DNA of 64,000 bases from Octopus sinensis. Its lineage: Eukaryota. The notes beneath the pieces are model-generated. The model had not been told where the DNA came from and did not search any database. It worked only from the letters and a program-made list of their open reading frames with translations. Every line of letters starts with the position of its first letter. Position 1 is the stretch's first letter. Positions 849 through 62,277 of this stretch are shown piece after piece. The position numbers were made by a program, and so were the translations under genes. The stretch covers positions 41,044,001 through 41,108,000 of the forward strand of contig NC_042997.1 in the NCBI RefSeq assembly GCF_006345805.1. Direction: 5' to 3'.

Positions 849-911
<63 letters not shown>

Positions 912-2792: not shown

Positions 2793-2795
<3 letters not shown>
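2713..2795 (+). mobile_element. tRNA-derived SINE head / tRNA pseudogene (copy at about 5792-5874; related reverse copy at about 11040-11100)
   Basis: A-box-like TACCTTAATGGTAGAGC and B-box-like GGTTCGCG, but no intact acceptor stem. Confidence 0.55.
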
Positions 2796-2851
<56 letters not shown>

Positions 2852-3952: not shown

Positions 3953-4010
<58 letters not shown>

Positions 4011-4533: not shown

Positions 4534-4586
4534 GTTCAAGTTCTGTTAATGAAATAATGGACAAAGCAACAGAAACAAACTTATAA
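4534..4586 (+). CDS. Second copy of the terminal exon (G)SSSVNEIMDKATETNL* inside the tandem duplication
   Basis: Identical to 1455-1507 at offset 3079. Confidence 0.55.
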
Positions 4587-5883: not shown

Positions 5884-5947
<64 letters not shown>

Positions 5948-11099: not shown

Positions 11100-12650
11100 A
11101 CAGTTAATTTGAACCCTGATAACTTCACCCCCGGTATTTTGACTCCGGTAATTTGACTACCAGTCAATTTCACTCTCGATATTAGAAAAAATAAAACGTT
11201 GAATAAGGATAAAATAAAAAGTCGAGTAAAATCTAAAATTATTACTAAAAGTTTCAATAAAAATGAAGGTTAGGGGCTATTGCTCATATAAAATCCATCT
11301 TATTTTCGGGACTATGTCGCTCAATACTTATCCGTTTGCTTATATCCTTTCTTTTATTTTTGTTTGGTCTCGCAGATCCCACCTCCATCAAATTCAACCT
11401 TTCTCAGCTGTAATTATCTCCATATATTCGGATGTGAACAAATTAAGGAAATTTGTAGGGCGTTGTGAAATCCCTCTAAAAGTTTATTTGTGCGAGGCAT
11501 ATCCGATTCTGTTTTAAAGCGGACATTCCAACTACTAATGGGAAACTAGGGAGAAGTCCTTCGTGGTCTCATTCCTTTACTTCGCACTCCTCTTAGGTAC
11601 CATAATCCAAAGTAGGTCACAAGTTCTTGCGGAAGATCATCGTCATCTACAAGATTTTCGACAATGGGAAACTAGGGAGAAGTCCTTCGTGGTCTCATTC
11701 CTTTACTTCGCACTCCTCTTAGGTACCATAATCCAAAGTAGGTCACAAGTTCTTGCGGAAGATCATCGTCAACTACAAGATTTTCGACAATGGGAAACTA
11801 GGGAGAAGTCCTTCGTGGTCTCATTCCTTTACTTCGCACTCCTCTTAGGTACCATAATCCAAAGTAGGTCACAAGTTCTTGCGGAAGATCATCGTCATCT
11901 ACAAGATTTTCCGTGAATCTCATCATCGAGACGAAGAATTAGCAATGCTTAAAAACCTCTGATTTTAATGCTAAACTCATTATCATGATGGTATCTTTCC
12001 TTCAAGACAAATTAACATGTTTTCTGTATATATTTTGTGATAGATGAAAAAGACAGCATGAGATGGAAGTAGTAGGAAACAGATACAATGCTATTAATAA
12101 GAGCTTTTTCAAAATCCCTCATAACATCTTCTGGGCTCAGTCTTTTGAGTAATTCATTTAGCTTATAAAAAAGGCGGGTGTAAGTTTATTGATTTTTTTT
12201 TGCGGAACACTGAATATCCCCACCTGAATATGATGCATGGATTTTGAAGCACATGAAGAATGAGGATCTTCACCAATGTGCTGAATTATGGTATGATCTT
12301 CATCATATATCATAATGTGCACTCGAGCGTTACAGGACTTAATTTCGAATATTCTGTAAGTCTTAGATTCATCGGCGTTTTGTTTCTATGCTTCATGATA
12401 TGTAATTCATGTCATCCACAAGTCTCTTCCTTCCGCGGATACTGTCAAAAACGTGAGGCATGGTGTAAGTATATTTCCTTTATAAGTAACTTTTATATCC
12501 TTGTAAGTTTGATAAATAATTTAACGAAGTATTTACACGAACGCACGAGGCTTCCTGTTATACGAGGTTACACGGCTCACAGCGAACTGCTGATAACTCG
12601 ACAGTTCTTTATTCATAGCAAATATGACAATTCACTTTTAATCATATGGG
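11100..12650 (-). mobile_element. Degenerate MULE (Mutator-like) transposase remnant
   Basis: Minus-strand translation near 11410-11537 gives SWNVRFKTESDMPRTNKLLEGFHNALQISLICSHPNIWRII, matching the MULE WN..R...RTNN..EG.H...HP.IW motif. Short subterminal-type repeats at 11100-11180. Boundaries approximate. Confidence 0.65.
11537..11910. repeat. 126-bp tandem repeat, 3 near-identical copies
   Basis: Units start at 11537, 11663 and 11789; ORF 11563-11916 repeats a 42-aa string. Confidence 0.97.
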
Positions 12651-15285: not shown

Positions 15286-15868
15286 AAATAGACACATGGA
15301 CTATTGGTTCGGTGCGTTCTGTCCACGAGAAAAACACTTCCAGTGCAGTCATCTGAGAAGAAATACCAGCAACAACCAAGGGTTAAACTTGCAACACACT
15401 GGCATCTCTTTTAGTGGGATGTCTTCTATCCAAGGTGTTGGAATATGTTGGATACCGAGAAAGACTGCGGCCTAATAAGCCTGAATATCATGTAGAGCAT
15501 ATAACTAAGAAACTACTTCAATGAAGACATTGAGGCATGCGCAGTCTCGTGTTAGTGTAACATTGATGGAGTGAAAGTAGACATGAATGTGTAGAAGACA
15601 AATCTACGTCCGGTGCTTTGATTGGAATGTAGCTGTTTGTGAAAGGTTGATTACTTGAACAATGACAGTTGAATGACCTGATAATGCTAATTAGATAAAT
15701 GATCATAAGTCTAATCAACATGATACATTTTGCAAGTTTTAACATTTTAGTGGAATGTTTAAAATAACAAATGGAATCAATGCCTCTTCCAGTGGTATTT
15801 GATCTTAGTCTGCGTATAACAGTATTTCATCTAGAAAACGAACGGTAGCAACAGATCAGATTTAATCC

Positions 15869-15874
15869 TTTATT
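15869..15874 (-). terminator. Candidate polyadenylation signal (AATAAA) of the minus-strand gene
   Basis: About 460 nt downstream of the TGA; at the homologous position to AATAAA 1815-1820 in the inverted paralog. Confidence 0.45.
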
Positions 15875-16079
15875 TAACAATTCTAAAGCTTACATTGATA
15901 ACATTAAAATGGCAAGAAGATAGAATATCAATATAATTTCAAATAATGCAATATTTTCTGTTTCAAGCCAAAGTGAGGTCCTGAAACTCGTTTAAATTAC
16001 TTTATGGTGGATTATACAGTCTCATGCATGCATAGTGTTGTATTGAAACGTACAATTATAGTATCGTTACAAGGAAAGA

Positions 16080-16285
16080 ATATTTTATATTATATATGGA
16101 GAAATTATCATTTCATATTATATATGAAGAAAATATAATTTTATATCATATATGAAGAAAATATTATTTCATATTATATATGCAGAAAATATAATTTTAT
16201 ATCATATATTAAGAAAATATTACTTCATATTATATATGGAAAAAATTTTATTTTGTATTATATATGCAGAAAATATCGTTTTATA
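16080..16285. repeat. AT-rich minisatellite, unit about 28 bp, about 7 copies, in the putative 3' UTR
   Basis: Recurrent ttt(t/c)atattatatatg(a/c/g)agaaaatat units. Confidence 0.85.
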
Positions 16286-16333: not shown

Positions 16334-16386
16334 TCAAAAGTTTGTTTCTGCTGTTCTATCCTCTGTTCCATTACCAGTACTTGAAC
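16334..16386 (-). CDS. Terminal coding exon (G)SSTGNGTEDRTAETNF* of the minus-strand receptor-like gene
   Basis: Acceptor ttacattatgtttccag|GTTCAAG; phase 1, compatible with the donor of exon 27179-27321; TGA at 16334-16336; homologous to 1455-1507. Confidence 0.72.
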
Positions 16387-16599
16387 CTGGAAACATAATG
16401 TAAAAACAAAATATAAAATTTTAAGTACATTAATTACCGGATAGTATTAATTTGTATATATATATGTGTTTATTTCTTACTTTTTGAACTGTTAGAGCTG
16501 TTTTCGTTATGTATCCAGTACAACCCTTAAACAAGTAAATAATATTTTCCTAAACAATAGATCAACGTATTTCAGTTTGTGACTTATTCACAAATATAC

Positions 16600-16905
16600 C
16601 ATGAATGACGATGCCTTTCATGTTACTTCAGCCAATTGACAAGCGCTGATGGAAGAACGGTTCTGCTTTGAGACAAATACACTGTCAAAACAAAGGTCAC
16701 ATCCTGTTTACATGTAAGAACACTTTCCTAAAATCTATCTGTACATCTTGAAAATGGCCAGCGTGTATATTTCACAGAAGACAATACTCGAAAGGTAGAA
16801 CTGAATCCATGAGAAACTACTTTGACAGCATTCTTCAAATTATGCCAATGTGATCTATGTACCAGAACACTGTTGTACGTAGAGATCCCCGTGTTCTCTA
16901 CCTGG
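16600..16905 (+). mobile_element. Helitron Rep/helicase remnant
   Basis: Translation LSVHLENGQRVYFTEDNT...P*ETTLTAFFKLCQCDLCTRTLLYVEIP matches the conserved Helitron VHLENGQRVYF...TTLTAFF.LC...LLY.EIP block. Confidence 0.8.
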
Positions 16906-17812
16906 GCACACAATATATATATGCACACATATATTTATTCATTTATATTTTTTTTAAATAATGAATAACATGACCATCCCGAAATATGTGTGTGTATGTG
17001 TATATATATTTTTACATTTTCTCGATCAATATATAATTTGTTACCAGATTTGACTAGTAAAAATGCTAATGTCTGTTTCGCGGCCCCTATTGTTGCATTT
17101 CCTCAATATTGACCACTACTTAGACATACTGATCGGATGCGCATAAACCTCTTTTATGCTGGAAATAGATAGACCTTATATTGATTTGCGAGTGGTAAAA
17201 TGAAATGAATGGAAACGGAGTGAAAAAAATTATATCATTGTTTGGCAATGGGATATGATTTATTCCTCTTTTATATCTCTTAGAGATGAGTTAAAGCGTA
17301 TGAGCTGTGTGTGTATCTATCGTTTCTTATTCAAAACTTAACATGATCACTTCAAACAAAATGAAATTCCGCCGAGGAAAATTATTTGCAGCACTAAAAA
17401 TCTTTCCTGTTTGAATTAAAGAAAGTACTGGATTTGTGTGAATTTTTATGCCCAGTAGAGTCTGCATCTTCTACTTCTATACAAAATAAGAAGAAAACAT
17501 TTTTGTCCTCGGTTAATTGGTATAATTAAAAAGAAACTGAGCAAAGACAAACAGTTCCGTAGGGACAAGAAACGGAAAAGTGCAAAATAAAATGCTGATT
17601 TATTGAAATTACCCAAGCTTTGAGAAAATGTAAATAAATAGTTGTATGTATGAGAGAGAGGGAGAGAGTCTGTGCGCTTGCGTGCACGCGTGGGTGTCCT
17701 AAGATATCATCCATTGTGGTTGATGATGACGACAACGACGAAGAGGATGGTAATGGTGATTGATAAAGCTAATTATGATGGTAATGGTGATAAAAATGAT
17801 CAGAAACAAGAT

Positions 17813-17912
17813 ACTTTCATTAGGAACTTCATGTGACTTTTCTGAACACCTAAGTTAAGCAATGCCTGGAATTTGTTCAAAACTTGGGAGATATTGCGCC
17901 GCAGTTGACTTT
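17813..17912 (-). pseudogene. Truncated pseudo-exon copy of exon 30338-30492 (SQLRRNISQVLNKFQALLNLGVQKSHMKF)
   Basis: The 5' part and acceptor are deleted, the gtaagt donor is lost by a 4-nt deletion (atacttacttt becomes atacttt), and there is a 1-nt frameshift near the end. Confidence 0.8.
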
Positions 17913-18803
17913 GAACACTTAAGGAAATTAATTGTTTTGTTTCAATTATTTTTATATTCAAATATAGCTTAGAATTGGATCATCATAGCTACAATAACCG
18001 CATTCAGTATGGTTGAGAACAGAATTAATGAAGAAGGCTAGAACTATAAGCGGGTGACTAAAAGTTGGTCTTAAGAACATATTCGTCCAGTACCGTGGCT
18101 TGCCCTCTTTAGCATGTAAGAAATCCACATGGTGGTCTTCCAACCGTGTATAAATTTTTATATACATTTTATATATATATATATATGTAATTTCCTGGCT
18201 GGTTTTAAATTGCGTGTTAGCCACCTTAAATATTTTATAATCTTCACATTGCCATTTTGTGAAATCAATCCCTAATTCCTATGGCATTCTCAATGATACT
18301 GACAGGTGTGAGTTAGCCTCCAGCAGCCGTAATGGAGTGAGCATTGCTGATGAGTATTAACTTCCTATAAGAAATTACCATGCTAATCTAATCCATCGGC
18401 TTACCGTGGGGAATGTTGTCCCCCCCCCTGTCAATGCACCATGTGTTTTTTTATGGCTAAGGTGTCTATGACTATAATTTAACACAATCACTGGTAAAAG
18501 GTTGCAAGACTCAACGAAATGTTTTAGGAAAATAAAAATAAGAAATACGTTGAAATTTTACCGGTGAGTGTGTTGAATTATAAGGCAAAAAAGAAAATGG
18601 CTCTCCCCAGACAGAACAGAATATGCTTCAACACACGAATTCATATAAATAATTTTGGAAACCAAATCCCAAAACGAAATAGTCTATGACTAATATTTCT
18701 AATAATGCTGGTGCTCACTGCACTGTTGTCACCTTTAGTGACTGTGAATTATTTCCCTGTTGGTCTTAAAATGCTGATAGCCGCATTGATTTATATATAC
18801 ACG

Positions 18804-18873
<70 letters not shown>

Positions 18874-18955
18874 TATATTATAAATACGTTCGTATATGTA
18901 AGTATATCGTATGTTGTATATGTATATATTTGTATTTATTTAATTTTCTGAGTAT

Positions 18956-19014
18956 ATTCCACTGATGAAGGCAGAGCATTTCTTATGCAGAGTCAGAAAT
19001 CTGAGATCTGGAAT
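18956..19014 (+). ncRNA. Candidate type I hammerhead ribozyme
   Basis: ATTCCA-CTGATGA-AGGC...GCAT-TTCTT-ATGC...GTCA-GAAA-TC-TGA-GA-TC-TGGAAT: perfect 6-bp stem I, both core motifs, AUC cleavage triplet. Confidence 0.6.
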
Positions 19015-19392
19015 TATCCAGTAATTTTTACTAGTTTATTTTGTCTCTTCGTCTTCTCTCCTGGTGCTATATGAACATTTAATGTGGTTTTAGGATCAAG
19101 ATTTGACTGCTCTTACCCTATATTATAATTTTAAATAATTATTACCTTTGATGGTTTTTATTCCCATGCTGGCCACCTGATAAAACCGATATTTAAATAT
19201 TGGTTTGTTTGTCCTTTGTATAATAAAACTTTGATAAAACACTTAAGCATTTCGTCGAAGGTATGAATTAGTATACTGTGGGTCACAAGTACAACGCTGT
19301 TGATTATGGTGACGTATAATACATGCGATAAAATCGAACGTTTGGACCAAACCAAATAAATTTGAATAAATGTGTTAGAAACTTTTGCTTAC

Positions 19393-19445
19393 CCAGGATA
19401 TTCAACTCTGAATTTTCCAGTCACGGTTAAAAACTCATTCTCCAT
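19393..19445 (-). pseudogene. Duplicate of exon 34739-34791 (MENEFLTVTGKFRVEYPG), frame and splice sites intact
   Basis: cag|ATG...GG|gtaag, 53 nt; its neighbouring duplicate exons are broken. Confidence 0.7.
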
Positions 19446-19533
19446 CTGCAAAAGCCGGATGTGTATATATATATGCATACATTAAATTCAAGAAACAAAG
19501 TTTGATTTAAAAGCGTTGAGATGTACTGAAAGA

Positions 19534-19885
19534 TACAGATGAGGAAATAATTTTACTTCCAAACGCAGGATAATGCTAATAATATAGCATGAACAGGATG
19601 AAATATCCATATTTTGCAGCTAGCTATGAGACTCAAACTCACATCCTGAGATTACGCGTCAAGTGCTTTACCATTAAGCTAAGCTGCCCGAACGACAAAT
19701 TCTGCTGCAAATTTAGGATATATAAATCTAGCTTTAGAAGTAGCGTTATCACAGGGATATGAGTTCAAGTCTCATGACTGATCGCCGACAGATTTTTCTG
19801 CAAAATATGGATAGTTTTTATCCTGTTCAATATATATTATTAACATTATCCTGCGTTTGAAAATAAACTTATTTTCTCCTCTGTA
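19534..19885. mobile_element. Palindromic element with inverted arms of about 85 bp enclosing tRNA-like heads (second copy about 34882-35231)
   Basis: 19534-19619 is the reverse complement of 19798-19885; inner minus strand reads GGGCAGCTTAGCTTAATGGTAAAGCACTTGACGCGTAATC...GAGTTTGAGTCTC. Confidence 0.7.
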
Positions 19886-20113
19886 ATATATATATATATA
19901 TATATAGTAAAATTTGAAGAGTAAAACATTAAAAATAAAAATAACAAAAAACAAAAAGACGTGCGCGTGGAATATATTAGCTGGACGCTCGGTAAAATGG
20001 AGGAAAAGAGAGCGTTTTTAACGTTCCGAGCATAGGTCTCTGTCGGAAAGGAAAACGGAAAAGTTGAGAGAAGGAGAATATTACCAAAAGTACCTGTGTA
20101 GTTACATATGTAC

Positions 20114-20182
<69 letters not shown>

Positions 20183-21219
20183 TGCATGTTCGCGCGCATG
20201 TGTGTGTAAAGATAGGATTAGTGAATAATTTGAGTGGGATTTCATTTACTGTCAGAATCGGAAATTATATCACGGAATATATAAATGATGATCATTGTGT
20301 GAACTTCTTTTACAGACAAAATAGTGGATCAAACACTCTTTTTATTGACCAGCAAAAAATCAGTAAGTTAGAAAGAAGTTTATGTAATAATTTACTATCA
20401 GTAATTGGAGTTTATTGTCTGAATTTCAGGAAACCCAAATACAATTATTTCGCAGTTTTTACTACGGTCTACTGCATGTTCATGTCTCAGTATATTTACG
20501 TGGCTGTATAAAAGTCTATATATACTTACATGCATACAAATTATGAACATATGGATTGCATTAGATTGCCGATGTTCAGTCCACTGCAGAACGAAGGTCT
20601 CAGTATAATCTCTCTACCAACCCTGTCTGATGTGGAGGCCGTGTTTTGACCTCGAGAGTATACTAGTTCGATGAACCTAACAACTCACACTAGCTCAACA
20701 AAGCTTGGCAGGGGAGTAAATACTCATACAGAGGTGTAGTAAAAACGATTAAAGGATGAAGGGCAAAGTCGGCTGCAGTAGAATTTGAACTCAAAATATA
20801 AAGATGGGCGAATTACCGCTTATCCTTTTGCTCGACGTACAAAAGACTTTTCCGGCTCGCCGCAGAATATGCAGGGAATCAAATAATAAATAAATACGCA
20901 TATAATGTTTATCTATATATTTGATTTGAACATGTATTTACAAATGTATGTATTTATGTGTTTAAGCTGATCAGGCTAAACTTTGAAATACCTGTTATCA
21001 TTTAACAAAATCGATATCACCATCTACTAAACGTATTGAGCTCACTCACTATTTAAATTGACGTTTTGCATTTCTTCTATAAAATATGCATGTGTGTGTG
21101 TATGTGATCATGAATGTGTGTATGCATGTGTGCGTGTGGTCAGTGCGTGTGTGTGTGTGCAAACGTGTGTGTATGTGTGAGTGTGCGGAGAAAGAGAGAG
21201 AGGGCAGATATCTACTCAC

Positions 21220-21301
21220 GGCTCTTGATATGTTCTCAGCAGGGATTTTATATTCGTTAACGTTTTTGAAATCAAACGAAATGCGAAGGATTTGGTCCAG
21301 C
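21220..21301 (-). pseudogene. Duplicate of exon 36552-36634 with a 1-nt deletion (WTKSFAFRLI[fs]KNVNEYKIPAENISRA)
   Basis: tag|GC...CC|gtgag sites retained, but 82 nt instead of 83. The deletion is in a T run, so it could be a sequencing error. Confidence 0.75.
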
Positions 21302-21542
21302 CTATGGATTGATATAGAAAATAATTGCTGTATTTATAAATGAGACACACGTCATAGATGCACATAAAACCCACATACGTAGATCAAAATACACATTCAT
21401 AATCAAATATACACTTAAAATACTATATATAAATATATATATATATATATATACGAATGTACATACTCACATTACTACATCTGCATCTACATGTATAAAC
21501 ACATATATAATGCATGTTTGTACACATACACAGTTCCATGTA

Positions 21543-21601
<59 letters not shown>

Positions 21602-21758
21602 ATATATATATTATATATATATATATATATATACGTACATATACACATATATATATATGTATATATATATGTATATATATATATGCAAATCAGCCCACAA
21701 TTGCATACATACATAACACATATATAAGTTATATTCATATGTACATACATAAGTAAAC

Positions 21759-21795
<37 letters not shown>

Positions 21796-22244
21796 ATATA
21801 TATATATATACATGTAGGAACATTTATTTGCATCTATGTGCACGTACACGTATCCAATATAGGATTTCATTATGGGGACAGCACTTCTGTGAAACGATCG
21901 TAAGATGCCTTAAATACTGAATTCAAACCTTTTAAACTGTCATATACATTATATATTTATACGTATACATATATACATATATTTTTATAAATATTTATAT
22001 TTATTTATTTATATATTCTTAATACAACAATTTTTTTTCACATGTGTATATCTTTCTGAGAAGTTTTCTGATATTGAATTCTTAATATTAATAATAATAT
22101 ATTATTTAAAAATATATATAATCGCTCGTATTAAATATATAAATACCTTAATAGTATTAATACTTTGATACAATAGAGCACTCAATATATATTCAGTATA
22201 TAATATTCTCATTGAATATATTTGACTAAAGATTCATATATACT

Positions 22245-22670
22245 CTTTACTCTTTTTACTCTTTCATTTGATTCAGTCATTTGACTGTGGCCATGCTGGA
22301 GCACCGCCTTTAGTCGAGCAAATCGACCCCAATACTTATTCTTTGTAAGCCTAGTATTTATTCTATCGGTCTCTTTTGCCGAACCGCTAAGTTACAGGGT
22401 CGTAAACACACCAGCATCGGTTGTCAAGCGATGTTGGAGGGGGGTGACAAAAACAGACACAAACATATACACACATACACACACATAGATATACATACAT
22501 ATACATATATACGACAGGCTTCTTTCAGTTTCCGTCTACCAAATCCACTCACAAGGTTTTGGTCGGCCCGAGGCTATAGTAGAAGACACTTGCCCAAGGT
22601 ACCACGCAGTGGGACTGAACCCGGGACCATGTGGTTCGTAAGCAATATACTTACCACACACCCACTACTA

Positions 22671-22672
<2 letters not shown>
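22245..22672 (-). mobile_element. tRNA-derived SINE (second octopus-type family, internal CA repeat)
   Basis: Minus strand starts with a tRNA-like head (GTGTGGTAAG...GGGTTCAGTCCCACTGCGTGGTACCTTGGGCAAGTG) and ends GGTGCTCCAGCATGGCCACAGTCAAATGACTGAA...AAAAGAGTAAAAGAG. Fragments of the same family occur near 2930-3060, 14370-14520 and 53030-53510. Confidence 0.85.
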
Positions 22673-22711
<39 letters not shown>

Positions 22712-22729
22712 TTAAGTATATAAATGAAT

Positions 22730-25640
22730 TATCTTATTACGGATAATTCGAAAGATAACCGATACCTGGGTAGCAAACTCACAACAGAAAGAACACGGTT
22801 GAAGTTACGACCATAGGGCATATACTCCGTGCCTTAGTGCGGAAATTTGAAGTTTAATTTAATATAATAAGTATAGGAAAGAATGGAGCTGAGCGAAGAT
22901 TTAACAAAATTCCTTTATTTTATTTTCGACATATGTTTCGAAGTCTGCAAAATCCCTAATTCCGAATGAATAAGGAGTCCATTATGCAGCTTCCTCTTCA
23001 GGTAAATCCAGGAACTTCTTTCACCAACAAAATGCACAACAAGTTTTCAGATGACTGCTCACGAGGAACCCATAGCGATAATGATAAATAATGCCTGTTT
23101 ATAGGGGGTGACATCAGATTGGTTGAATGTAAGAGAAGCTGGCAGTTAAAAGAGTTCAAGGTTCAATCAAGGTTGGAGAAGGAAGGAAAAAGAATATTAA
23201 GGTGAGGGAATGTGTACTGTTGGACTGGTGTTTATATTTGATTTATTTTATGAATGAGTGCTCGTATGTATGAGTGTGTATAATTGCCTTAATGTGTGTG
23301 TGTGTGTGTCTGTGAATGCGTGATTGTGTATGTAGAAGGCTGACAGAAAATTAACAGTCAGGAGGTGAAAGGACTGTGTCTGTGTGTTCGAATGTGTCAA
23401 CTTAAGAGGGAGTGGGCAGAGAGCTCACAATAGCAATGACGAGAGACGAGGGGACTACTAGAATTGCTAGCAGCTCTTAGCAATTATGAGAAAATCTTAT
23501 AAACTAAAGGGATGAGATATCACAAATTAATTTTGTAGGAAATCCAGGGGTTATCTATATTAGACTTCATTGGTATGAGTGAAAAGTATGCTTTTTCCAG
23601 TGTAAGCATCTGAAAGATCTCTCGACAATCGAGTTTATTACTTGGCTTCGGGCAAACAGAATATGAAAGAGTTCGAAATTACAGAGGGCACAGATTTTTC
23701 TGCCCTTATCAAACGGTAAGGATACCGACAATATTGACCATTCCAGCGTAAAAGTTGAATTTGCGTTCTTCAAACGCCAGACTAATTAGCTTAGCCCCGT
23801 GGTGTGCTGTTTACTCTTATCTCGGAACGTGGAAAAATGGTTTGAGACCCTTGTGGCTAATTTAGAGGAGGTTGCGCCAATATAGAGGTAGACATCGGAT
23901 CCAGTAGAAATTTTGCACTGGTAAGTGGTGTTTCTAATTTTGGAGTTATTTGATAAGAACCTTAATCTATTGGGATTAGTTTCCGATACTAATACAGCGT
24001 TCTTATTTCTATGATGGGTGAAAAAATTACTGCTGGATTTGGGCACGATACTATTCATCCTATTTTCATTGCTATTTAAGACAATATCACCTGCACATTC
24101 CCTGTTTCTGGGAATGCTGTGATTGTTATTGTCCGTAAAACTACTGTTGTTAAGGACGCTGCTACTATTATTGTTGAGACCCCCTCCGTTAATGTCCTGG
24201 TTAGTGCTCTTATCATTATTACTATTGCTAACGCCAATGCTGGTATGAAGGCTGTTAATATCTGTGCTGTTTCTATTATTATTATTATTATTATTACTAT
24301 ATGCTACGTTGGAATTTGATAGGGCGGTGTCTCTGCTCATGGGTGATGAGACCTTATTTAGCAGCTTATTGTTATGGGAGGCAATTATCTGTGAGAGATT
24401 TTTAGTATTTGAGAAAGCAATCCTTACTTTGTGCGAAATTATAGTGGAGTAATATCTCGAATTTCTGGGAAAATTCCTGGCAATGGCTTGGCGAAACTGT
24501 AAAGGGAGGTTAGATCCGATTTGTTTCCCAAAAGGAATCACAAACCAGATATAGTTTTTTCTGTTCTTGGACTGGCTCGGAGTGTTAACTCTTACATTAA
24601 GGGGGGCATCTCTGTATTGAAGAATGGGTTTTGGCTTACGATGGTCTCCCTTGGACCGCAACTTATTTATGTTAGCTATATTTGTGTCGACATTGCTAGA
24701 GCTACCATCACTACTTATATTATTTATATTATTGTAAGTTAACTTATCCTGATGAGCAAATACTGGTTTCGGAAGGGCCGGGTCGATATATGCTACCTTT
24801 TCCCTATAACCGGATTTTGACAGGGCGGCATTATAGAATTCCGCTTTTTGCTTAAAAATGTCGACGTTGACAGATAAATTTGATAATCTTAAAGAAATAT
24901 TTTTAACTAAATTATCTGTGATAGTTTTTGCGTGGTTACTGGAGATACTGACATATTTTAGGTTTGTGGAAGGTTTATGGTAGGGGCAGTAAGAGTTGCT
25001 ATGCAGATTTAGGGTAACATCTAAGAAATTGGCCTTAGTTAGTTAGTGGTCGAAAACTATGTTCATGCCCATCCTACTAAAGAACCTAGCTAATCTATTT
25101 TTAGTTTTCTGTATCCTTCTGTTCGGGGCATCCTGTAGGTAAAAAAGACAATCGTCTCGATATAGACCGCCGCAGATGTCCGGGAATTGGTCGGCTAATT
25201 CATAGAGAATATAGATTCCGACCAAATCGGCTATCTGAGCGCTATCTGGGCGCTATCTGAGCTTCCCATTGGCACATCGAACTCGTTGGGAGTATCCTTA
25301 CGGACCCATAACTTATCTTCAAACTGTATAAAGGATTTTCTAGCCACTAGAATTATATTAATTTCCTCCCTTGTGAGGCCTGCCTTATTATGCGCGTGCC
25401 ATAGGGCCTTATTGAGTACACTAGGGTTTATCGAGGGGTAGAAATTAGCAATATCGAACTGAATGAACTTAGTGCTGTTTTTATTAGAAATGGAAGAAAA
25501 CCAATTTACGACTTGCGTGGAGCTGGCCCAAAGGTTAAGCTTAAGCTTATTAACTAATATAGGTAAGTCGCAAATTGGTTTATTATTATTTCTCTTTATC
25601 ACAGGTTGTGTAGGAGTTCCTGGAGGCTTGCATTGTGGGA
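22730..25640 (-). mobile_element. Penelope-like retroelement (RT plus GIY-YIG endonuclease), 5'-truncated and frameshifted
   Basis: FIQFDIANFYPSI, FDVPMGSSDSAQIA, GLYRDDCL and NFLDVTLNL RT motifs; TYQCKI...YIGATS...RVSNH and WSIL...CALCNFE GIY-YIG motifs. A short internal duplication at 25231-25262 breaks the frame. Confidence 0.92.
22920..23008 (-). ncRNA. Hammerhead ribozyme motif at the 3' end of the Penelope element
   Basis: Minus strand: CTGAAGA-G-GAAG-CTGCA...(TCCTTATTC/GAATTAGGGA hairpin)...TGCAG-A-CTTC-GAAAC-ATAT-GTC. Palindromic stem III (ACATATGT) and a GUC site; stem I is weak. Confidence 0.7.
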
Positions 25641-25679
25641 GTTCCTGGACACTTGCTCATTCTAATGTCGACCCTCCAG

Positions 25680-26120
25680 TTTGTGGCCAAAGCTTACTCT
25701 TGCCCTGCCAATATAGTGTTCTCGGTCTCTTTCTTTAGAATTCCTTTCATCAGCCAATCCCACCTATTTTTTGTTATATGGAAATTCATCGTGTTCTCCC
25801 TTCTTGCGCCATTCTTCTTAATTTCTTTTTATGTTTCTTCCTTCGTTTTTCCTGCTTTCAATACTCCCTCATTCCTAACTGTCACTAGTAAGGTTTCCTT
25901 ACTTTGGGTTCGGTATCTCATTAAGCCTTCGAGTTCGAAACGCACGCAGTTTCCCACGCTTATCAGTCCCTTTTCTCCATTCGCTCTCTTCGTGTATCGG
26001 CGATCAATGTCTGCACGTGGATGATGGGCTCCATACATCGTTAGGACCTGTCTTGACTTCCTGTCCATCTCCTTTAGCTTCTCTGTCCACTTTAGTTTTC
26101 CAGCTTTCAAACCAATATTT
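25680..26120 (-). mobile_element. R4/Dong-like non-LTR retrotransposon fragment
   Basis: LKWTEKLKEMDRKSRQVLTMYGAHHPRADIDRRYTKRANGEKGLISV, the same region as in 8924-9226. Confidence 0.8.
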
Positions 26121-26309
26121 TGTTCACTCGCCAAAAGTGCTCTCTTTTTCTCTTTTCCTTCATGTCGTGGTGTTTGATTCCATCTGTGTTTGTGTGAGTG
26201 TGAGTGAGAGAGAGAGTGTGTTTGGGGGGGGGGCATTGTAAACGATGAATGAAATGAACATGAAATGAAAAAATCGTGTAAATAAATGGACATAATAAAC
26301 GGAATAATA

Positions 26310-26523
26310 CAGGTTTCAAATATTGGTACGTGACCAGCAGATTCGGTGTAGGGGGTTACGTTGATTACATTGACCCAGAGCTCAACTTTCGCTTATTTTA
26401 TCGACACAGAAATGATGAAAAGCAAAGTCAATCTCGGCGGAATTTGAACTCAGAACGTAAAGACAGACGAAGTACTGCAAAGCATTTCTCCCGGTCTGCT
26501 AACGATTCTGCCAGCTTACCGCC
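26310..26523 (-). mobile_element. tRNA-derived SINE
   Basis: Reverse complement of the family at 48887-49088. Confidence 0.8.
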
Positions 26524-27178
26524 TAATTTAAGGATTAATAGTGATAAGTTTTCATAATGGTCTAATGAGAAATTGAAATCATCACATCACTAAATGCATA
26601 TGAAAATCTATTCAATTTGACAGTGCCATAATAACATTTGAGAGAAGTAAATTGCTTATATTCTATGACACAGATATGTAGGGTATGTCATTGAATATTT
26701 GAAGATTCTACAGCCACCGCTCCAACGTAATGTATGCAAAGAGGTATGTACCAGTAATATCCCCCTTGTTTTTCTGCTTCTCGATCTACTCAGCCTGTCT
26801 GCAGAATGTTTACGAAAACGTGGTTTTAACGATATTACAATAATGAACTCAACTCTCCAAAGTAATACATTCTTTTATAACGTTTCCATAAATGAGTCAA
26901 ATTATTTGCCGTTGAACGAGATGGACTCATTCCTGGAGGACTCAAACGGGAGAATAGGTTGCATTACCTTTTCATAAATCATTGTAATTACAAACACACA
27001 CACACAGAACAGTCATAATGGAACAGACATAGAAATACATACACATACACACTCACCACCCCCACCCCCACCAGAGTGGTCGTATTTAAACAGACAGAAA
27101 GTCTCTCACAAAAATTACTTCTTCTCATCCTGCTATTTCTACTACTGTAAAACTCATTTAAAACATTTGCTCGCTCAC

Positions 27179-27321
27179 CATCATCAATGCCTTTGCTCTG
27201 TTCTGCATTGTAACATTGAGACATGTCTGGTTCTTGCCAGATACCAGTAAACGGTGAACACTTTTGTGATGACAGGTTTTGACTTGATGCCATTTCTGGA
27301 TGCCCCATCGTTCTGGAAGAA
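27179..27321 (-). CDS. Exon, second half of the HRM domain: (C)SSRTMGHPEMASSQNLSSQKCSPFTGIWQEPDMSQCYNAEQSKGIDD(G)
   Basis: tttttcag|T...G|gtgag, 143 nt, phase 2 to 1. G.W..PD.S.C is the HRM C-terminal signature. Confidence 0.88.
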
Positions 27322-28116
27322 CTGAAAAAATAAATGTTAAATATTATCAGTCGAGTTTATTCATTCTGAGGAGAATTTCATCAGTCTCAGAGGAATATAA
27401 GAAACCTTCGATCTGGTCGTGATTTGAACTCATAATTTAGTGAAAGAAGGATAAATGGTGTCTTGTATTTGGGGGAGAAATCTATTATTTACTCCTGAAC
27501 CCTATCCTCAAAACTAATGTCAGATATTTTCTAACTAGAGTTCAGATATAAAAATAATATTCCTGCATCAGTTTTTATTTACAATAATTTGTTGTTTTTT
27601 ATGATTATTCAATACAAGATTAGTTGGAACGGTGTAGGTGATGCAGAATTAAGGAGCCAAGTTGTTAGTTCAAGTTGAATGGGGGAATTAGTTGCTAATA
27701 TTTCGACACCATAGACATCAGTAGCAACAGTGGCAGCAATGGATTTATGTATATTTTCCTACATATGCACAGATTTGAGTGATTCCACCAGTTGGTTTTG
27801 TCTTAAAACTAATGAAGCTCAGCCTCTGTGAGGAACAATTTAGATGCTTAACCTGTGGAATGACGTGGTAGAAATGAGAGAAGAGAGACCGTGTTACATA
27901 GTCTGTGACGAGTGAAATCCCAGGATCACCATCATGTACTAGCAAGATATATAGCTCTAAGGTAATCATAAAATTGAATAAATAGTATTAGCCTGAAACC
28001 AACAGAATCACTGATAGATTCTATTGACTGTATCTAGGTATGTGCTTTCTTTCCTACAATTATTTTGTGAAATTCTGGAACTTACAAGAATCTTTAAATC
28101 TTTGAATAATGCTGAT

Positions 28117-28505
28117 TTCAAATTTTAGCACAAGGCCAGCTATTTGGGGCGGGGGTAGTTCGATTACATAGACCCCAGTGTTTAATTGGTACTTATTTTA
28201 TCGATCCCGAAAGGGTAAAAGACAAAGTCGACCCTGGTGGCATTTGATCTCAGAATGTAAAGTCAGAAGAAATGCTGCTAATCATTTTGTCCGGCATGGT
28301 AACTATTCCACCAGGTCAGCACCATAAAGCCTTGTCTAATATTGGTTTCAAATGTTGGCACAAGGCCAGCAATTTCAGGGGAAGGGATAAGTAGTTTACA
28401 CTAACCCCAGTGCTCAAATGGTATTTATTTCATCGAACCGAAAAAATTAAAGGCAAAGTCGACCTTAGCGGAATTTGAACTCAGAACATAAAAAACGAAT
28501 GAAAT
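28117..28505 (-). mobile_element. Two adjacent tRNA-derived SINE copies (about 28117-28305 and 28345-28505)
   Basis: Both match the 48887-49088 family in reverse orientation. Confidence 0.8.
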
Positions 28506-28744
28506 GAAAGCTTTGTATAATATTGGCGACAAAGCAAACTTAGGTAGTTAGGACAAGGCTAAATTATATCAAATAATGTATAAAATGTAAAAATGCTGGG
28601 ACAAGAGATTGCAACCGATAGACATTTAATTCTATCTTGTTAATCTATAAAGCTGTTATCTGCTCTACCAAGTAATATTCTCTCACAATAGGATGACGCT
28701 GAAAACTTCAAACTTTGAGTAGAAATAAATCAATACAAACGAAC

Positions 28745-28859
28745 CAATTCCTGGTGGCTACATATGCATGACATGGGATCTCTGCAGTAGTTCCTATTTT
28801 TGTCATTGGCCAAGAAAAAGCTCGATTGTTAGTTGATGTTGTGCTTTCATCACAAACCA
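28745..28859 (-). CDS. Exon, first half of the HRM domain: (M)VCDESTTSTNNRAFSWPMTKIGTTAEIPCHAYVATRN(C)
   Basis: ttctttttcag|TG...TG|gttcgt, 115 nt, phase 1 to 2. C...WP.T..G.....C....A.R.C is the HRM signature of secretin and adhesion GPCRs. Confidence 0.9.
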
Positions 28860-28895
28860 CTGAAAAAGAAGCAAAATATGGATATGAGAGAAGCC

Positions 28896-28896
<1 letters not shown>

Positions 28897-28936
<40 letters not shown>

Positions 28937-28950
28937 CAGCAGCAGCAGTA
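28897..28950. repeat. (TAG)n/(CAG)n microsatellite
   Basis: Directly visible. Confidence 0.95.
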
Positions 28951-29400
28951 GTTAACGTTGGAAATAAATTGTTTTGGACCACCTGCTGGCTGATTTGAGG
29001 ACAATGATACATGAAGTGTTACAAACATATACGGAGAGCATATATATTTATTCAAAATAGACAGATTTCTAGTTTTTCATTTAGTAGTTTAGAAAGAGAT
29101 AAATGATTTAGAAATGAATTACAATCCCTTACAACACAAGGACCCCCGACCCAACCAGGCTCCATGCAATTCTTGGAAGTGTAGTCTATTCTTAACTAAA
29201 ATGGCGACAATATGAATTTCTCCATCTTCTTGCTCTCTTAAAATATTTGAGAAAAATTACATTAAAGTGTCCTACTTATTAAAATTCTCTTTCTTTATTT
29301 ATGCAGCTGAAGATGGCATTGCATTTAAATTGATGTAATGTTTGTATTGTTCAATTAGATTTAGCCGCTTGAAACTGCATAACTACTTGATATCCTGTAG

Positions 29401-29462
<62 letters not shown>

Positions 29463-30160
29463 ATATTTACTTATATATTCTTAAAAAATAATAAATAAAA
29501 TAGAAATATAGGTGTGTGCATATGTATATATATATTTTATATTTTCTCAAGCAATATAACTGATTACGGGATATGACTACTCAGAATGCTAGTCTGTTTC
29601 GCGGCCTCTAGTGTTGGATTTCGTCAATATATTGATCACTCTTTAGACATACTGACCGGAAGCGCAAAACCTAATGTACGCTAGAAATAGGTAGATGTTA
29701 TATTGATTTGGCGATGGTAAAAGGAAATGAATAGAAACGACGTGAAAATATATCATTTTTCGGCAATGGGATATGATTTGTTCCTCTTTTATATCTCTTA
29801 GAGATGAGTTAAAGCGTATTAGCTGTGTGTGTATCTATCGATCCTAATTCAAAAATTAATATGATCACTTCGAACAAAATGAATTTTCACCGAGGAAAAT
29901 TATTTGCAACATTAAATAATTTTCCTGTTTGAATTAAAGAAAGTACTGGAATTGTGTGAATTATTCTGCCCAGTAGAGTCTGCATCTTCTACTTCTATAC
30001 AAAATAAGAAGAAAACATTTTTGCCCTTGGTTAATTGGTATAATTAAAAAGAAACTGAGAAAAGACAAACAGTTCCGTAGGGTCAAGAAACGGTAAAGCG
30101 CAAAATAAAATGCTGTCTTTTTAAAATTATCCAAGCTTTGAGAAAATGTAAATAAATAGT

Positions 30161-30209
<49 letters not shown>

Positions 30210-30337
30210 GAGAGAGTCTATGTGCTTGACATCATCTACTGTGGTTGATGATGACGACAACGGCGAAGAGTTTGGTGATTGATGAAGCTAATTATGACGG
30301 TAATGATGACAAAATTAATAAGAAACACGATACTTAC

Positions 30338-30492
30338 TTTCATCAATGAATTTCATGTGGCTTTGCGGAACTCCTAAGTTAAGCAATGCCTGGGATTTGT
30401 TCAAAAGTTTAGAGATATTGCGCCGCAGTTGACTTTCAGTCATTTCGCTAAATACTGTACAGTAAATAGCAAATATTTTATTTCTGTTTGAG
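30338..30492 (-). CDS. Exon, SEA-like part 3: (G)SNRNKIFAIYCTVFSEMTESQLRRNISKLLNKSQALLNLGVPQSHMKFIDE
   Basis: ttttatttcag|C...A|gtaagt, 155 nt, phase 2 to 1, open frame that matches both neighbours. The domain label is an inference. Confidence 0.85.
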
Positions 30493-30621
30493 CTGAAATA
30501 AAAATAAATACATACATGTATGTCGGTATGTATGCATGTATGTAGCTAGCTAGCTAGATAGATAGAAATAAACATACATTGATACGCACGTCCAGACCAA
30601 TCCTACGCACTAATACTCTCT

Positions 30622-33527: not shown

Positions 33528-33599
<72 letters not shown>

Positions 33600-33852
33600 T
33601 CAATGTGAGGATAAAATTCTTTTCGAAAAAAAAACATTTTCTCGAAAAAAATTTTATCAATGGCCAGCATATTAAAAAATACCTTTAACGGTTAAATTTA
33701 TAAACAATTCATAAATGAGGGCAAAGGAAACAAAATTCTAATGCCAAATATGCCGAAAAATTGGACATATTGTCCATTAACCATATAATTTTTTCACAAT
33801 ACGCACGCTACTCGAAAAAAGGCTGACAGAAATTTCTAAAAAATTCCATTAT

Positions 33853-33910
33853 TACCATATCGGACCGATTTCAGAGTTAGCTACTAAGAGCCCTCTCTTC
33901 GTCAGTAATA
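33853..33910 (-). ncRNA. Type I hammerhead ribozyme (minus-strand copy)
   Basis: TATTA-CTGACGA-AGAG...CTCT-GAAA-TCGG-T-CCGA-TA-TGGTA. Confidence 0.75.
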
Positions 33911-34243
33911 CATGTTTTTTTCCTTTGCCCTCATTTATGAATTGTTTATAAATTTAACCGTTAAAGGTACTTTTTAATATGCTGGCCATTGATGAAATTT
34001 TTTTCGAGAAAATATTTTTTTTTCGAAGAGAATTTTATCCTCACATTTGATATAAATTTAAGCGTTCACTCCCGAACTAACTAACTCACTCTGTGAGAGC
34101 CTCACTTCAAATCGCACGTGCCTCGAATGGGCTGGAGTATTTCTATTTTGGATGTATTTAGGGTACTTCGTTGTGCCCATGACTTAGTATTTGCTTCTTC
34201 CTTGGGTGCGAGTAAGTATCTCATTTATATCTTTTACCACATG

Positions 34244-34301
34244 TATCACTGACGAAGAGAGGGCTCTTAGTAGCTAACTCTGAAATCGGTCCGATATGGT
34301 A
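34244..34301 (+). ncRNA. Type I hammerhead ribozyme (plus-strand copy)
   Basis: TATCA-CTGACGA-AGAG...CTCT-GAAA-TCGG-T-CCGA-TA-TGGTA: complete core with stems I, II and III; predicted cleavage after AUA at 34296. Confidence 0.8.
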
Positions 34302-34452
34302 ATAATGGGATTTTTTAGAAATTTCTGTCAGCCTTTTTTCGAGTAGCGTGCGTATTGTGAAAAAATTATATGGTTAATGGACAATATGTCCAATTTTTCG
34401 GCATATTTGGCATTAGAATGTTTTTCCTTTGCCCTCATTTATGAATTATATA

Positions 34453-34526
<74 letters not shown>

Positions 34527-34738: not shown

Positions 34739-34791
34739 CCACAGTGTTCAACTCTGAAATTTCCCGTTACGGTTGAAAACTCATGCTCCAT
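34739..34791 (-). CDS. Exon, SEA-like part 2: MEHEFSTVTGNFRVEHC(G)
   Basis: tttgcag|ATG...GG|gtaag, 53 nt, phase 0 to 2; splice sites conserved in the duplicate at 19393-19445. Confidence 0.85.
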
Positions 34792-36551: not shown

Positions 36552-36634
36552 GGTTCTTGATATGTTCTCAGCAGGGATTTTATATTCGTTGGACATTTTA
36601 AAAATCAAACGAAATACGAAGGATTTGATCCAGC
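36552..36634 (-). CDS. Exon, SEA-like part 1: (G)WIKSFVFRLIFKMSNEYKIPAENISRT
   Basis: ccatag|GC...ACC|gtgagt, 83 nt, phase 1 to 0; joins the Ly6 exon to the next exon in frame. Confidence 0.85.
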
Positions 36635-37217
36635 CTATGGATTGATATAGAAAATAATCGCTGCGTTTATAAATGAGACACACGTCATAGACGCACATAA
36701 AACCCACGTACGTAGATAAAAATACACATTCATAAATATACTATATAAAAAATATGTAGTGAGAATTCGCAAAATAACAAAAGACGAAGACAGGTGGTGT
36801 AGAAAACAAACAGATGTATTTGTATAACGTTCCATAGATAGATAGATATACGAATATACAGACTCACGTAAATGTATAGATACATGTATAATCACACATA
36901 TATATATGCATGCATGTACACATACAGAGTTCCATCCGTTTTTCTGTCCTCGATTCGTATATATTCGATCCTTTTTCCAAGAAATCTAATGCTCGTAGCT
37001 TAGTTTTCCGTGGGGCTGGCCGGATCGGAGTGATCTCAAGATTAAGCAGGCGAAATTGCGAGGATGATCCGGTTCTCGACTGAAGATTAGAGGCTTCGAA
37101 TGACCCGTCCGTTTTTTGTGTCGTCTATTTGAGTGTTTTGCGTTTTTGTCCCATTTTGTATTTTATATATATTTTTATACATATATTATTGCGGCGTAAC
37201 GTACATCTTGTCCTGTT

Positions 37218-37257
<40 letters not shown>

Positions 37258-37284
37258 GCATATATACACACATATATGTACGTA

Positions 37285-42294: not shown

Positions 42295-42476
42295 CAATGA
42301 AATCATTCTTGTTACATAAGTGTCCGACGCAACAACTAGTACAAGCCGTGCTATTCGTCCGTTTATTGCATGTAAGGGTATTGTTTCTCATAGCTTCAAC
42401 ACATTTTCTGTATGTGCTGCAGGACCTTTCAGTCTTCAGTTTAGCACCGTTCATTGATTGCGAATCGGCATACAGG
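42295..42476 (-). CDS. Exon, Ly6/uPAR three-finger domain second part: PVCRFAI[frameshift]MNGAKLKTERSCSTYRKCVEAMRNNTLTCNKRTNSTACTSCCVGHLCNKNDFI(G)
   Basis: ttattacag|CCT...G|gtaagt; CCxxxxCN terminal signature. At 182 nt it does not fit phase 0 to 1, which implies an indel near 42455-42460. Confidence 0.82.
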
Positions 42477-44416: not shown

Positions 44417-44508
44417 CTCTGCTCCTGGACAGCTTGTCACATAGGAATCATTGCAGATCATTCCTGAACATGTTTGACACTGTAAATTCCGTTGAAATAA
44501 CGAGTAAT
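44417..44508 (-). CDS. Exon, Ly6/uPAR domain first part: (N)YSLFQRNLQCQTCSGMICNDSYVTSCPGAE
   Basis: tattctgtag|AT...GAG|gtaaac, 92 nt, phase 1 to 0; L.C..C....C......CP pattern of three-finger domains. Confidence 0.88.
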
Positions 44509-49677: not shown

Positions 49678-49835
49678 TTTGACATTGCGAATAATCCAGT
49701 ATAGGTATTCGTTTCCCTGAGCCTTCCTGACACGTGCCAAAGACAGCCACAGTTCTGTTATAGACTTTTTTGATATAATTTACGAAGGCTGGCAAGTGGC
49801 ATCCACACCTCATAAGGTTATTGTTTAGGAGGTAA
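49678..49835 (-). CDS. Exon, LRR C-terminal cap: (I)YLLNNNLMRCGCHLPAFVNYIKKVYNRTVAVFGTCQEGSGKRIPILDYSQCQ
   Basis: ttattacag|T...A|gtaagt, 158 nt, phase 2 to 1; N...CxC.L......C......C four-cysteine LRRCT pattern. Confidence 0.9.
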
Positions 49836-52595: not shown

Positions 52596-52667
52596 ATATT
52601 AACTATGCTGGGAAGGAATAAGAAAGCGCCATCTTCATATTTTTCTATTGGGTTGTTTTGCAAATAT
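52596..52667 (-). CDS. LRR exon 5 (last LRR): YLQNNPIEKYEDGAFLFLPSIVN(I)
   Basis: ctttttcag|A...AT|gtaag, 72 nt, phase 2-2, LxxNxIxx.xxxaF..L pattern. Confidence 0.88.
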
Positions 52668-56322: not shown

Positions 56323-56394
56323 AATCTCTCTAAATTCGAAAGCCCCATGAATACACCTTCTTTGATGGTTGAAATGTTGTTCCATCGCAGATCT
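56323..56394 (-). CDS. LRR exon 4 (type B): DLRWNNISTIKEGVFMGLSNLER(L)
   Basis: gctatag|A...TT|gtaagt, 72 nt, phase 2-2, typical 24-aa LRR. Confidence 0.93.
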
Positions 56395-58091: not shown

Positions 58092-58163
58092 AATTCTTGT
58101 AAGTTATGAAGGCCTTGAAACATCTCTTTTTGAATCCTCGAAATTTTATTGGTGGAAAGATAT
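58092..58163 (-). CDS. LRR exon 3 (type A): YLSTNKISRIQKEMFQGLHNLQE(L)
   Basis: gcttcag|A...TT|gtaagt, 72 nt, phase 2-2. Confidence 0.93.
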
Positions 58164-59963: not shown

Positions 59964-60021
<58 letters not shown>

Positions 60022-61438: not shown

Positions 61439-61510
61439 AATCTCTTTAAATTCGAAAGCCCCTTGAATGTACCTTCATTGATGGTTGAAATGTTGTTCAA
61501 ATTCAGATAT
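61439..61510 (-). CDS. LRR exon 2 (type B): YLNLNNISTINEGTFKGLSNLKR(L)
   Basis: gctatag|A...TT|gtaagt, 72 nt, phase 2-2; visible at the end of ORF 61435-61866. Confidence 0.93.
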
Positions 61511-62205: not shown

Positions 62206-62277
62206 AAATACTGTAAGCTTAGAAGGCCTTTAAACATCTCTTTTTCAGTCCTTGAAATATTATTGTCGGAAAGATCT
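62206..62277 (-). CDS. LRR exon 1 in window (type A): DLSDNNISRTEKEMFKGLLSLQY(L)
   Basis: gcttcag|A...TT|gtaagt, 72 nt, phase 2-2. Upstream exons are presumably beyond position 64000. Confidence 0.93.

Follow-up and report, generated by a model that had tools for sequence, protein, structure and literature searches.

ADGRG6-like genes without GAIN and seven-transmembrane exons in Octopus, and the state of one copy in Octopus sinensis

What does a G protein-coupled receptor (GPCR) gene of the adhesion class encode if the exons for its signalling half are gone? This question is raised by a 64,000-nucleotide (nt) stretch of Octopus sinensis DNA (contig NC_042997.1, positions 41,044,001 to 41,108,000; hereafter the window), whose minus strand carries an ADGRG6-like gene composed of leucine-rich repeat (LRR), LU-like, SEA and HRM modules. 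A long modular adhesive ectodomain is present in the form of LRR, LRR C-terminal cap (LRRCT), LU-like, SEA and HRM exons, and the exons from LRRCT to HRM share 55-89% identity with the receptor P0020 (P numbers denote protein models of our sample). The 5′ end of the gene, with the signal peptide, lies past the right edge of the window, beyond position 64000. A preliminary description of the sequence proposed that the GAIN and seven-transmembrane (7TM) exons are missing between HRM exon 2 and the terminal exon, that these two exons are spliced directly to each other, and that the product is a soluble ectodomain. Judged by its exons, the window gene is by descent a member of the Octopus ADGRG6-like family and falls into an undescribed subfamily without GAIN and 7TM.

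Absence of the GAIN and 7TM exons

The lack of GAIN and 7TM coding sequence was borne out by tblastn and by profile searches, both for the interval between the terminal exon and HRM exon 2 (16386-27179) and for the entire window. Searching with a full-length paralog, as the preliminary description had suggested, confirmed the absence in the window: residues 421-972 of receptor P0020 gave only low-complexity noise, and all ectodomain exons were matched. No match in the window at E ≤ 0.05 was obtained for 22 of 24 queries made from the post-HRM parts of receptors; the other two gave one chance match (E 0.03), which lies outside the HRM-terminal interval. When 13 further proteins were used as whole queries, the top matches were confined to the ectodomain or there were none. 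A hidden Markov model (HMM) built from the GAIN-7TM-tail part of 19 receptors (587 positions) scored no better than E 0.39 in 3,206 six-frame segments; since the terminal exon, with its 16 codons, also went unnoticed by this profile, exons of very small size may escape it. A control HMM from seven receptor ectodomains placed all 11 non-LRR exons, including two of 17 codons, above the first noise match. Pfam detected no 7tm_2 domain in the subfamily models P0006, P0009, P0016, P0017 and P0018. The window locus is not a functional adhesion GPCR gene.

The interval itself holds more than the repeats and debris with which the preliminary description had filled it. Of its 10,792 bases, 4,068 (38%) are a copy of the SEA cassette, and the supposed decayed duplicate is a second, shortened cassette with three exons (SEA2a to SEA2c), 83-94% identical to the first (SEA1). 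All AG/GT splice sites of the SEA2 exons are present, the donor of the third exon being damaged, and the models of paralogs place these exons precisely between HRM and the terminal exon. Among the repeats named in the interval, the Penelope and R4 elements were recognized by motifs and gave no Pfam match, and a Helitron remnant (about 16520-16900) was recognized by a single motif.

It is correct that HRM exon 2 ends and the terminal exon starts in phase 1, and that the two, when joined, leave an open frame to the stop. This match is no better than expected by chance, because LRRCT, LU, SEA, HRM and terminal exons all meet in phase 1. For the same reason, a deletion between any of those introns preserves the reading frame.

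A subfamily in two octopus species and its origin

For comparison, 115 protein models were retrieved, mainly from O. sinensis and O. vulgaris, and assigned to architecture classes by pattern. Thirty of them end with SEA2 and the terminal exon, six have SEA2 and another end, and 43 carry the first GAIN helices. The 12 O. sinensis models that end with SEA2 and tail represent 10 LOC identifiers on five sequences, the 18 O. vulgaris models lie on four sequences, and the O. bimaculoides matches were receptors or fragments only, with no SEA2-tail form among them. Two derived marks distinguish the subfamily: in 26 proteins, all of them without GAIN, HRM exon 2 is shorter by the nine residues with which the first GAIN helix of receptors begins, and SEA2 exon c lacks its first part and has a new in-frame acceptor, subfamily-wide. 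The window copy shows this layout, with a short HRM exon 2, SEA2 exons a to c with a shortened c, and the terminal exon directly behind. Its HRM exon 2 agrees with the GAIN-less paralogs at 47 of 47 residues, and its terminal exon matches the paralogs at 16 of 16.

In a tree of 36 distinct SEA rows, taken from 56 extracted domains plus the two of the window, the 20 distinct SEA2-to-tail rows, including that of the window, form one clade (support 98/96); the extraction pattern left out the SEA2 of P0018 and distant receptors, and the gap shared by all SEA2 may raise the support. This clade nests within a group to which SEA1 and the SEA domains of sister receptors without HRM also belong. Diagnostic residues are common to some cross-species pairs (P0014 with P0054, and P0015/P0016 with P0017), so the architecture predates the split of O. 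sinensis and O. vulgaris rather than being an artefact of a single assembly. Numbered isoforms exist at several O. sinensis loci, and RefSeq isoforms are usually backed by transcript alignments; in one of them, P0003, SEA2b runs into the terminal exon in a different frame and the protein ends with FKYW.

Misassembly, considered in the preliminary description, would mean that tandem paralogs had been collapsed or mis-joined and that GAIN and 7TM had been lost in this way. The cluster is indeed highly repetitive, with a 3.1-kb tandem copy of 99.55% identity at 874-7061, and the best public sequencing run contained 36% of the words sampled from 26000-30600. Against this, the same exon order, short HRM exon and short SEA2c recur at many loci in the assemblies of two species, and the introns of the SEA1 and SEA2 cassettes are 3-13% apart and are thus not one collapsed sequence. 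We find misassembly barely credible. As the gene models stand, this is a multi-locus subfamily without a transmembrane segment, and we regard its GAIN-less architecture as almost certainly real. The models are public under names such as "slit homolog", "IGFALS-like", "uncharacterized" and "ADGRG6-like". A literature search, from which most subscription journals lay outside, found no paper on GAIN-less octopus paralogs, and the available passages of a 2026 review (PMC13197933) mention no molluscan case. Four models (P0042, P0043, P0056 and P0057) are LU-SEA-tail forms without HRM; the out-of-frame start of P0056 and P0057 lies near the site at which LU exon 2 of the window copy is broken.

How the truncated architecture came about can be outlined from the introns. 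Behind SEA2c, some 900 bases of intron, as far as 16913, share homology with the SEA1-to-HRM intron, the partner copy running into a TA microsatellite at 29442, and homology to the last intron of a paralog begins at 16423. Through unequal recombination in a tandem cluster, HRM may have come to be followed by a second SEA cassette, and everything from GAIN to the seventh transmembrane segment would have been lost in a deletion that reached from the intron after SEA2c to the last intron, the frame being kept since all module boundaries are in phase 1. The expected intermediate is a receptor with repeated SEA-HRM units before GAIN, and the receptor model P0001 has three such repeats. The SEA2 cassette would have arisen once and spread among paralogs later. 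P0018 carries the SEA1 of a different receptor clade (that of P0060/P0071) together with a SEA2 and tail of the same type, which suggests that the cassette was transferred onto a second ectodomain. The earlier idea that pieces of tandem paralogs were fused is, in our judgement, right.

Between the two cassettes of the window, SEA exon b (34791-34739 against 19445-19393) differs at 9 of 53 bases and the introns at about 6% (6.4%; Fisher p 0.007). Conversion of the introns, or an exon derived from a more distant paralog, could account for this. Positive selection on exon b was not accepted as an explanation: the exon is one of three and was chosen post hoc, and by hand count three of the nine changes are silent.

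State of the window copy, secretion and possible function

The window copy is probably a decaying member of the subfamily. Its LU exon 2 has 182 bases where the paralog proteins predict 184 (a 2-base deletion), SEA2a has 82 bases against 83 in SEA1a, and SEA2c has lost one base near its end and four at the donor, which is shortened to GTATCT. The default splice path meets a stop in LU2, 118 residues past the start of the last LRR exon, and a path that skips LU meets one in SEA2b. The terminal exon is reached only if both the LU and the SEA2 exons are skipped, or by similar shortcuts. With these lesions, the balance tips towards a true pseudogene. Alternatively, the copy may be intact in the animal and the frameshifts consensus errors, in which case it would encode the normal secreted LRR-LU-SEA1-HRM-SEA2-tail protein; this is a sub-case of the explanation that we prefer below for the subfamily, and differs only in the state of the window copy. 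The lesions are losses of one or two bases in or beside short repeats, and the remaining exons have open frames. When the two 3.1-kb duplicate copies are aligned, 14 columns differ, 12 in microsatellites and two as single-base homopolymer indels, a pattern typical of long-read error, and the homopolymer differences count against decay because the frameshifts could likewise be assembly errors. Yet three frameshifts plus a 4-base donor loss in about 1.6 kb of exon exceed the usual yield (about one indel per 1.5-3 kb, a rough estimate from that duplicate), and private substitutions occur in most exons. We give an intact copy a modest chance.

A further possibility is that the copy is expressed through the direct splice from 27179 to 16386 that was proposed at the outset, with the broken SEA2 exons and both LU exons skipped. 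A path made up of LRRCT, SEA1, HRM and the terminal exon keeps its frame open as far as the normal stop, skipping of LU is exemplified by P0006, and a direct HRM-to-tail junction is found in two of the 115 proteins (P0089 and P0113, O. vulgaris models of a distant paralog). However, it is used by none of the 30 models with SEA2 and tail and by none of the 26 proteins with the short HRM exon. SEA2a and SEA2b have the same splice sites as their SEA1 counterparts, so their inclusion is expected by default. Moreover, since the LU2 deletion lies upstream, the direct splice gives a full product only with both LU exons skipped as well, that is, with five exons skipped in two blocks. We regard this route as unsupported and highly improbable. 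The junction in P0089 and P0113 perhaps reflects a second, independent loss of GAIN and 7TM.

For intact copies, the soluble ectodomain predicted in the preliminary description appears to be the right product. Past the signal peptide, none of ten GAIN-less models scanned has a 19-residue window with a hydropathy above 1.6 (maximum 1.28), and the same scan returned 53 and 60 such windows in two receptors. A signal peptide is present in eight of these ten models and in 15 of 53 paralog proteins. With a signal peptide and no anchor, intact copies should be secreted. Peptides from skin mucus of O. vulgaris bear on this point. The supplement of a proteome prepared as a detergent-free 40,000 g supernatant (PMC10138644) lists, in this soluble mucus fraction, at least five peptides (nine spectra) of the clade: EGAFTGLSNLK with four spectra, VTSCPEAEPVCR with two, and AIEHDLSTVTGTFR, SQELLNLGVK and NLQCQTCSGIK with one each. 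One of the five crosses the LU1-LU2 junction. Among the 115 proteins, VTSCPEAEPVCR, SQELLNLGVK and NLQCQTCSGIK match GAIN-less proteins only (seven, eight and two matches, respectively, and none in the 55 that bear GAIN or GPS). Five GAIN motifs had no match among the 3,654 supplement rows listed; the spectra are few, so this blank, like that for SEA2 and tail motifs reported below, carries little weight. We consider it likely that the subfamily makes a secreted protein. Two peptides of another LRR/SEA paralog, LOC115232314, are found in rows 1308 and 1331 of the same supplement, so ectodomains from more than one clade reach the mucus. A second O. vulgaris mucus proteome (PMC11431876) names ADGRG6 proteins and proposes ADGRG6 as a marker of skin-mucus health; what is called ADGRG6 there may be these secreted proteins rather than the receptor.

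Overall, the explanation that we favour, with some reserve, is a young Octopus subfamily of GAIN-less genes for secreted ectodomains. Intact copies would consist of a signal peptide, a variable number of LRRs, the LU-like domain, SEA1, HRM, a shortened SEA2 and the old cytoplasmic-tail exon, and would be secreted into skin mucus, to which the mucus peptides lend partial support. By the known mechanism of adhesion GPCRs, the lack of GAIN means no self-cleavage and no tethered agonist, and the lack of 7TM no signalling. The ectodomain is near-identical to that of the HRM-less sister receptors, so the same ligands are expected. Intact copies may act at the body surface as soluble decoys or ligand-capturing proteins, a role that we put forward tentatively.

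Several points weigh against this explanation. The evidence from paralogs consists of gene models, of which those from O. vulgaris may be projections from O. sinensis; annotation takes only open-frame copies, and the start of P0056 and P0057 out of frame within LU exon 2 suggests further broken copies. SEA2 is one strand short and predicted with low confidence, and may be an unfolded remnant. EGAFTGLSNLK and AIEHDLSTVTGTFR also match the receptor models P0078 and P0086, none of the five mucus peptides matches the window copy's own exons, five motifs from SEA2, the tail or the HRM end are absent from the 3,654 rows listed, and shed fragments of cleaved receptors would be soluble, too. The decoy role is an inference. 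Part of this would equally suit the view that the whole subfamily without GAIN is debris left by gene birth and death in a tandem cluster with fast turnover, transcribed and at times translated but free of any selected function, and that the mucus peptides are shed receptor fragments. The three frameshifts and the damaged donor of the window copy fit such debris, as do the out-of-frame starts of P0056/P0057, a SEA2 without a strand, the models with odd fusions or read-through ends, of which there are many (P0008, P0038, P0058), and the fact that the GAIN-less form was not seen among the O. bimaculoides matches. Debris is harder to reconcile with a SEA2-tail frame that is open at 10 O. sinensis loci and on four O. 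vulgaris sequences, with a replacement acceptor in SEA2c that is in frame and common to all, and with three mucus peptides that match GAIN-less models only while the GAIN motifs went unmatched among the rows listed. We consider it unlikely, though it stands as the main rival of a decoy role.

If the preferred reading of a secreted subfamily is extended, an adhesion GPCR would have given rise, in the common-octopus lineage, to a multigene secreted LRR family through a portable cassette of SEA2 and old tail that was grafted onto various receptor ectodomains. The products, variable in LRR number and sequence, might serve as paired soluble and membrane-bound recognition molecules in mucus, either for microbial recognition or for tuning the chemo-tactile signalling of the sister receptors. 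We offer this extension as speculation and hold it doubtful.

The family as such has been met before. An expansion of adhesion GPCRs that is specific to octopuses (group 3), with LRRs in 5 of 22 sequences and expression in axial nerve cord, suckers, skin and gills, is the subject of Ritschard et al. (2019; PMC6408891); going by this description rather than by a gene list, group 3 is very probably the family of the window gene. Their collection was made by the Pfam signature of class B 7TM, so that copies without 7TM fall outside it, and the available passages mention no SEA, LU or GAIN-less genes. Any GPCR survey that selects on 7TM would miss the subfamily. Full-length octopus relatives resemble vertebrate ADGRG6/GPR126 in the order SEA-HRM-GAIN-7TM, the best fold match is a GPR126 structure (6v55), and the octopus family profile matches ADGRG2/ADGRG6 structures at E < 1e-90. 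The ectodomain of GPR126 contains CUB and pentraxin domains. In place of these, the octopus proteins have LRRs and an LU-like domain, and genes of the window type differ further by lacking GAIN, GPS, tethered agonist and 7TM.

Ectodomains without the signalling unit also occur elsewhere: more than half of the mouse adhesion-GPCR genes studied by Knierim et al. (2019; PMC6667449) make soluble-ectodomain transcripts, and truncated Cirl isoforms with one transmembrane segment are described as binding and tuning the 7TM form (bioRxiv 10.1101/2023.01.11.521585). The mouse and Cirl products derive from a full-length gene, as isoforms or by cleavage, whereas the octopus genes are dedicated and multi-copy, no longer contain GAIN and 7TM at the level of the DNA, and have the old cytoplasmic tail as their end. 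Soluble adhesion-GPCR ectodomains were thus already known as splice isoforms or shed fragments; new is a dedicated GAIN/7TM-less subfamily beside near-identical signalling receptors, a natural experiment on the lone ectodomain. These are the HRM-less sister receptors of LRR-LU-SEA-GAIN-7TM type (P0078, P0085, P0086, P0092, P0112 and P0114), whose signal peptide, LRR, LU and SEA are near-identical (P0078 is 94.5% identical to LU2 of the window) and of which P0078 and P0085 have their SEA in the same clade as SEA1. Unlike the subfamily, they retain GAIN/GPS, in P0078 with a full 7TM, and are without HRM and SEA2. The subfamily outweighs the single window locus, which looks broken. In both species, the sister receptors join SEA directly to GAIN, a further product of shuffling phase-1 modules.

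Domain identities and layout of the locus

The model of SEA1 has a beta-alpha-beta-beta-alpha-beta (ferredoxin-like) topology, with a predicted local distance difference test score (pLDDT) of 65-87. Foldseek, run with the AlphaFold model, returned the zebrafish GPR126/ADGRG6 ectodomain 6v55 as best match (E 1.6e-6) and the MUC16 SEA structure 8vm1 as third (E 0.019), and a distant paralog reaches E 0.013 against Pfam SEA. VIA-align is unspecific when taken alone (6v55 at rank 34, Z 6.7, root-mean-square deviation 3.6 over 93 residues). On this predicted fold, SEA1 qualifies as a SEA domain. SEA2 lacks 17 codons, including the third strand of the fold, and has a pLDDT below 50 in both models, for which the alignments are shallow or mixed with GAIN columns. 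A helical SEA2 in the second structure model was disregarded, since GAIN columns overlap SEA2 in its alignment. We also considered whether SEA2 gave up a cysteine in step with the loss of the partner strand; this was rejected, because related SEA domains keep either cysteine alone.

The cysteine-rich LU-like domain scores below the cut-off of Pfam UPAR_LY6_2 (E 0.017, 15.7 bits against 31.5), and its region did not fold in the predicted model; it carries a C-terminal CCxxxxCN motif, which would fit the LU (Ly6/uPAR, three-finger) pattern. The ESM Atlas gave no usable match for the LU-like or the SEA1 region. The tail end ETNF is common to the window gene and the receptors P0060, P0062, P0063 and P0112, where it is the cytoplasmic end; it looks like a PDZ-binding motif of class I, which would have no task in a secreted protein.

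Table 1. Features of the ADGRG6-like gene in the window, in the order of transcription
Position	Strand	Feature	Remarks
62206..62277	-	LRR exon	72 nt, phase 2-2, intact
61439..61510	-	LRR exon	intact
58092..58163	-	LRR exon	intact
56323..56394	-	LRR exon	intact
52596..52667	-	final LRR exon	intact; 21 of 23 residues as in best paralogs
49678..49835	-	LRRCT exon	158 nt, phase-1 end, intact
44417..44508	-	LU-like (Ly6/uPAR-like) domain exon 1	intact
42295..42476	-	LU-like domain exon 2	182 nt, frameshift near 42460 and premature stop
36552..36634	-	SEA1 exon a	83 nt, intact
34739..34791	-	SEA1 exon b	53 nt, intact
30338..30492	-	SEA1 exon c	155 nt, phase-1 end, intact
28745..28859	-	HRM exon 1	115 nt, intact, weak donor GTTCGT
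27179..27321	-	HRM exon 2	143 nt, AG/GTGAGC, phase-1 end
22882..25660	-	retroelement remnant	in HRM-SEA2 intron, Penelope-like by motifs, no Pfam match, limits set by eye
21220..21301	-	SEA2 exon a	82 nt, 1-base frameshift
19393..19445	-	SEA2 exon b	53 nt, intact; 16 of 17 residues as in paralog SEA2b
17815..17917	-	SEA2 exon c	5′ part gone, new in-frame acceptor common to subfamily
16423..16913	.	interval with putative deletion junction	Helitron-like remnant inside
16334..16386	-	terminal exon, former cytoplasmic tail	phase-1 start, ends ETNF-stop
15295..16097	-	3′ untranslated region/downstream sequence	75% identity to region behind terminal exon of convergent paralog

An AATAAA motif lies at about 16252, 3′ of the terminal exon. 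CT-rich tracts of low complexity and very great length occur in the LRR introns (55100-63230), and the LRR exons of this region stand in alternating pairs with near-identical flanks, as if a two-exon unit had been duplicated in tandem. Nested inverted repeats (148 bases at 94% and 220 bases at 97% identity) in the intron between SEA1b and SEA1c (33587-34457) and an inverted repeat of 317 bases at 37217-37982 are probably remnants of foldback transposons. At 11537-11911, three near-perfect tandem copies of 126 bases lie within a transposase-like remnant. The 3.1-kb tandem duplicate consists of 874-3981 and 3953-7061, each copy with a plus-strand terminal exon (about 1455-1508 and 4534-4587) that agrees with the end of P0020 at 15 of 16 residues. 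The duplication either happened very recently or is an assembly artefact; to judge from these exons, a convergent paralog probably ends at the duplicate, with the second copy as an orphan.

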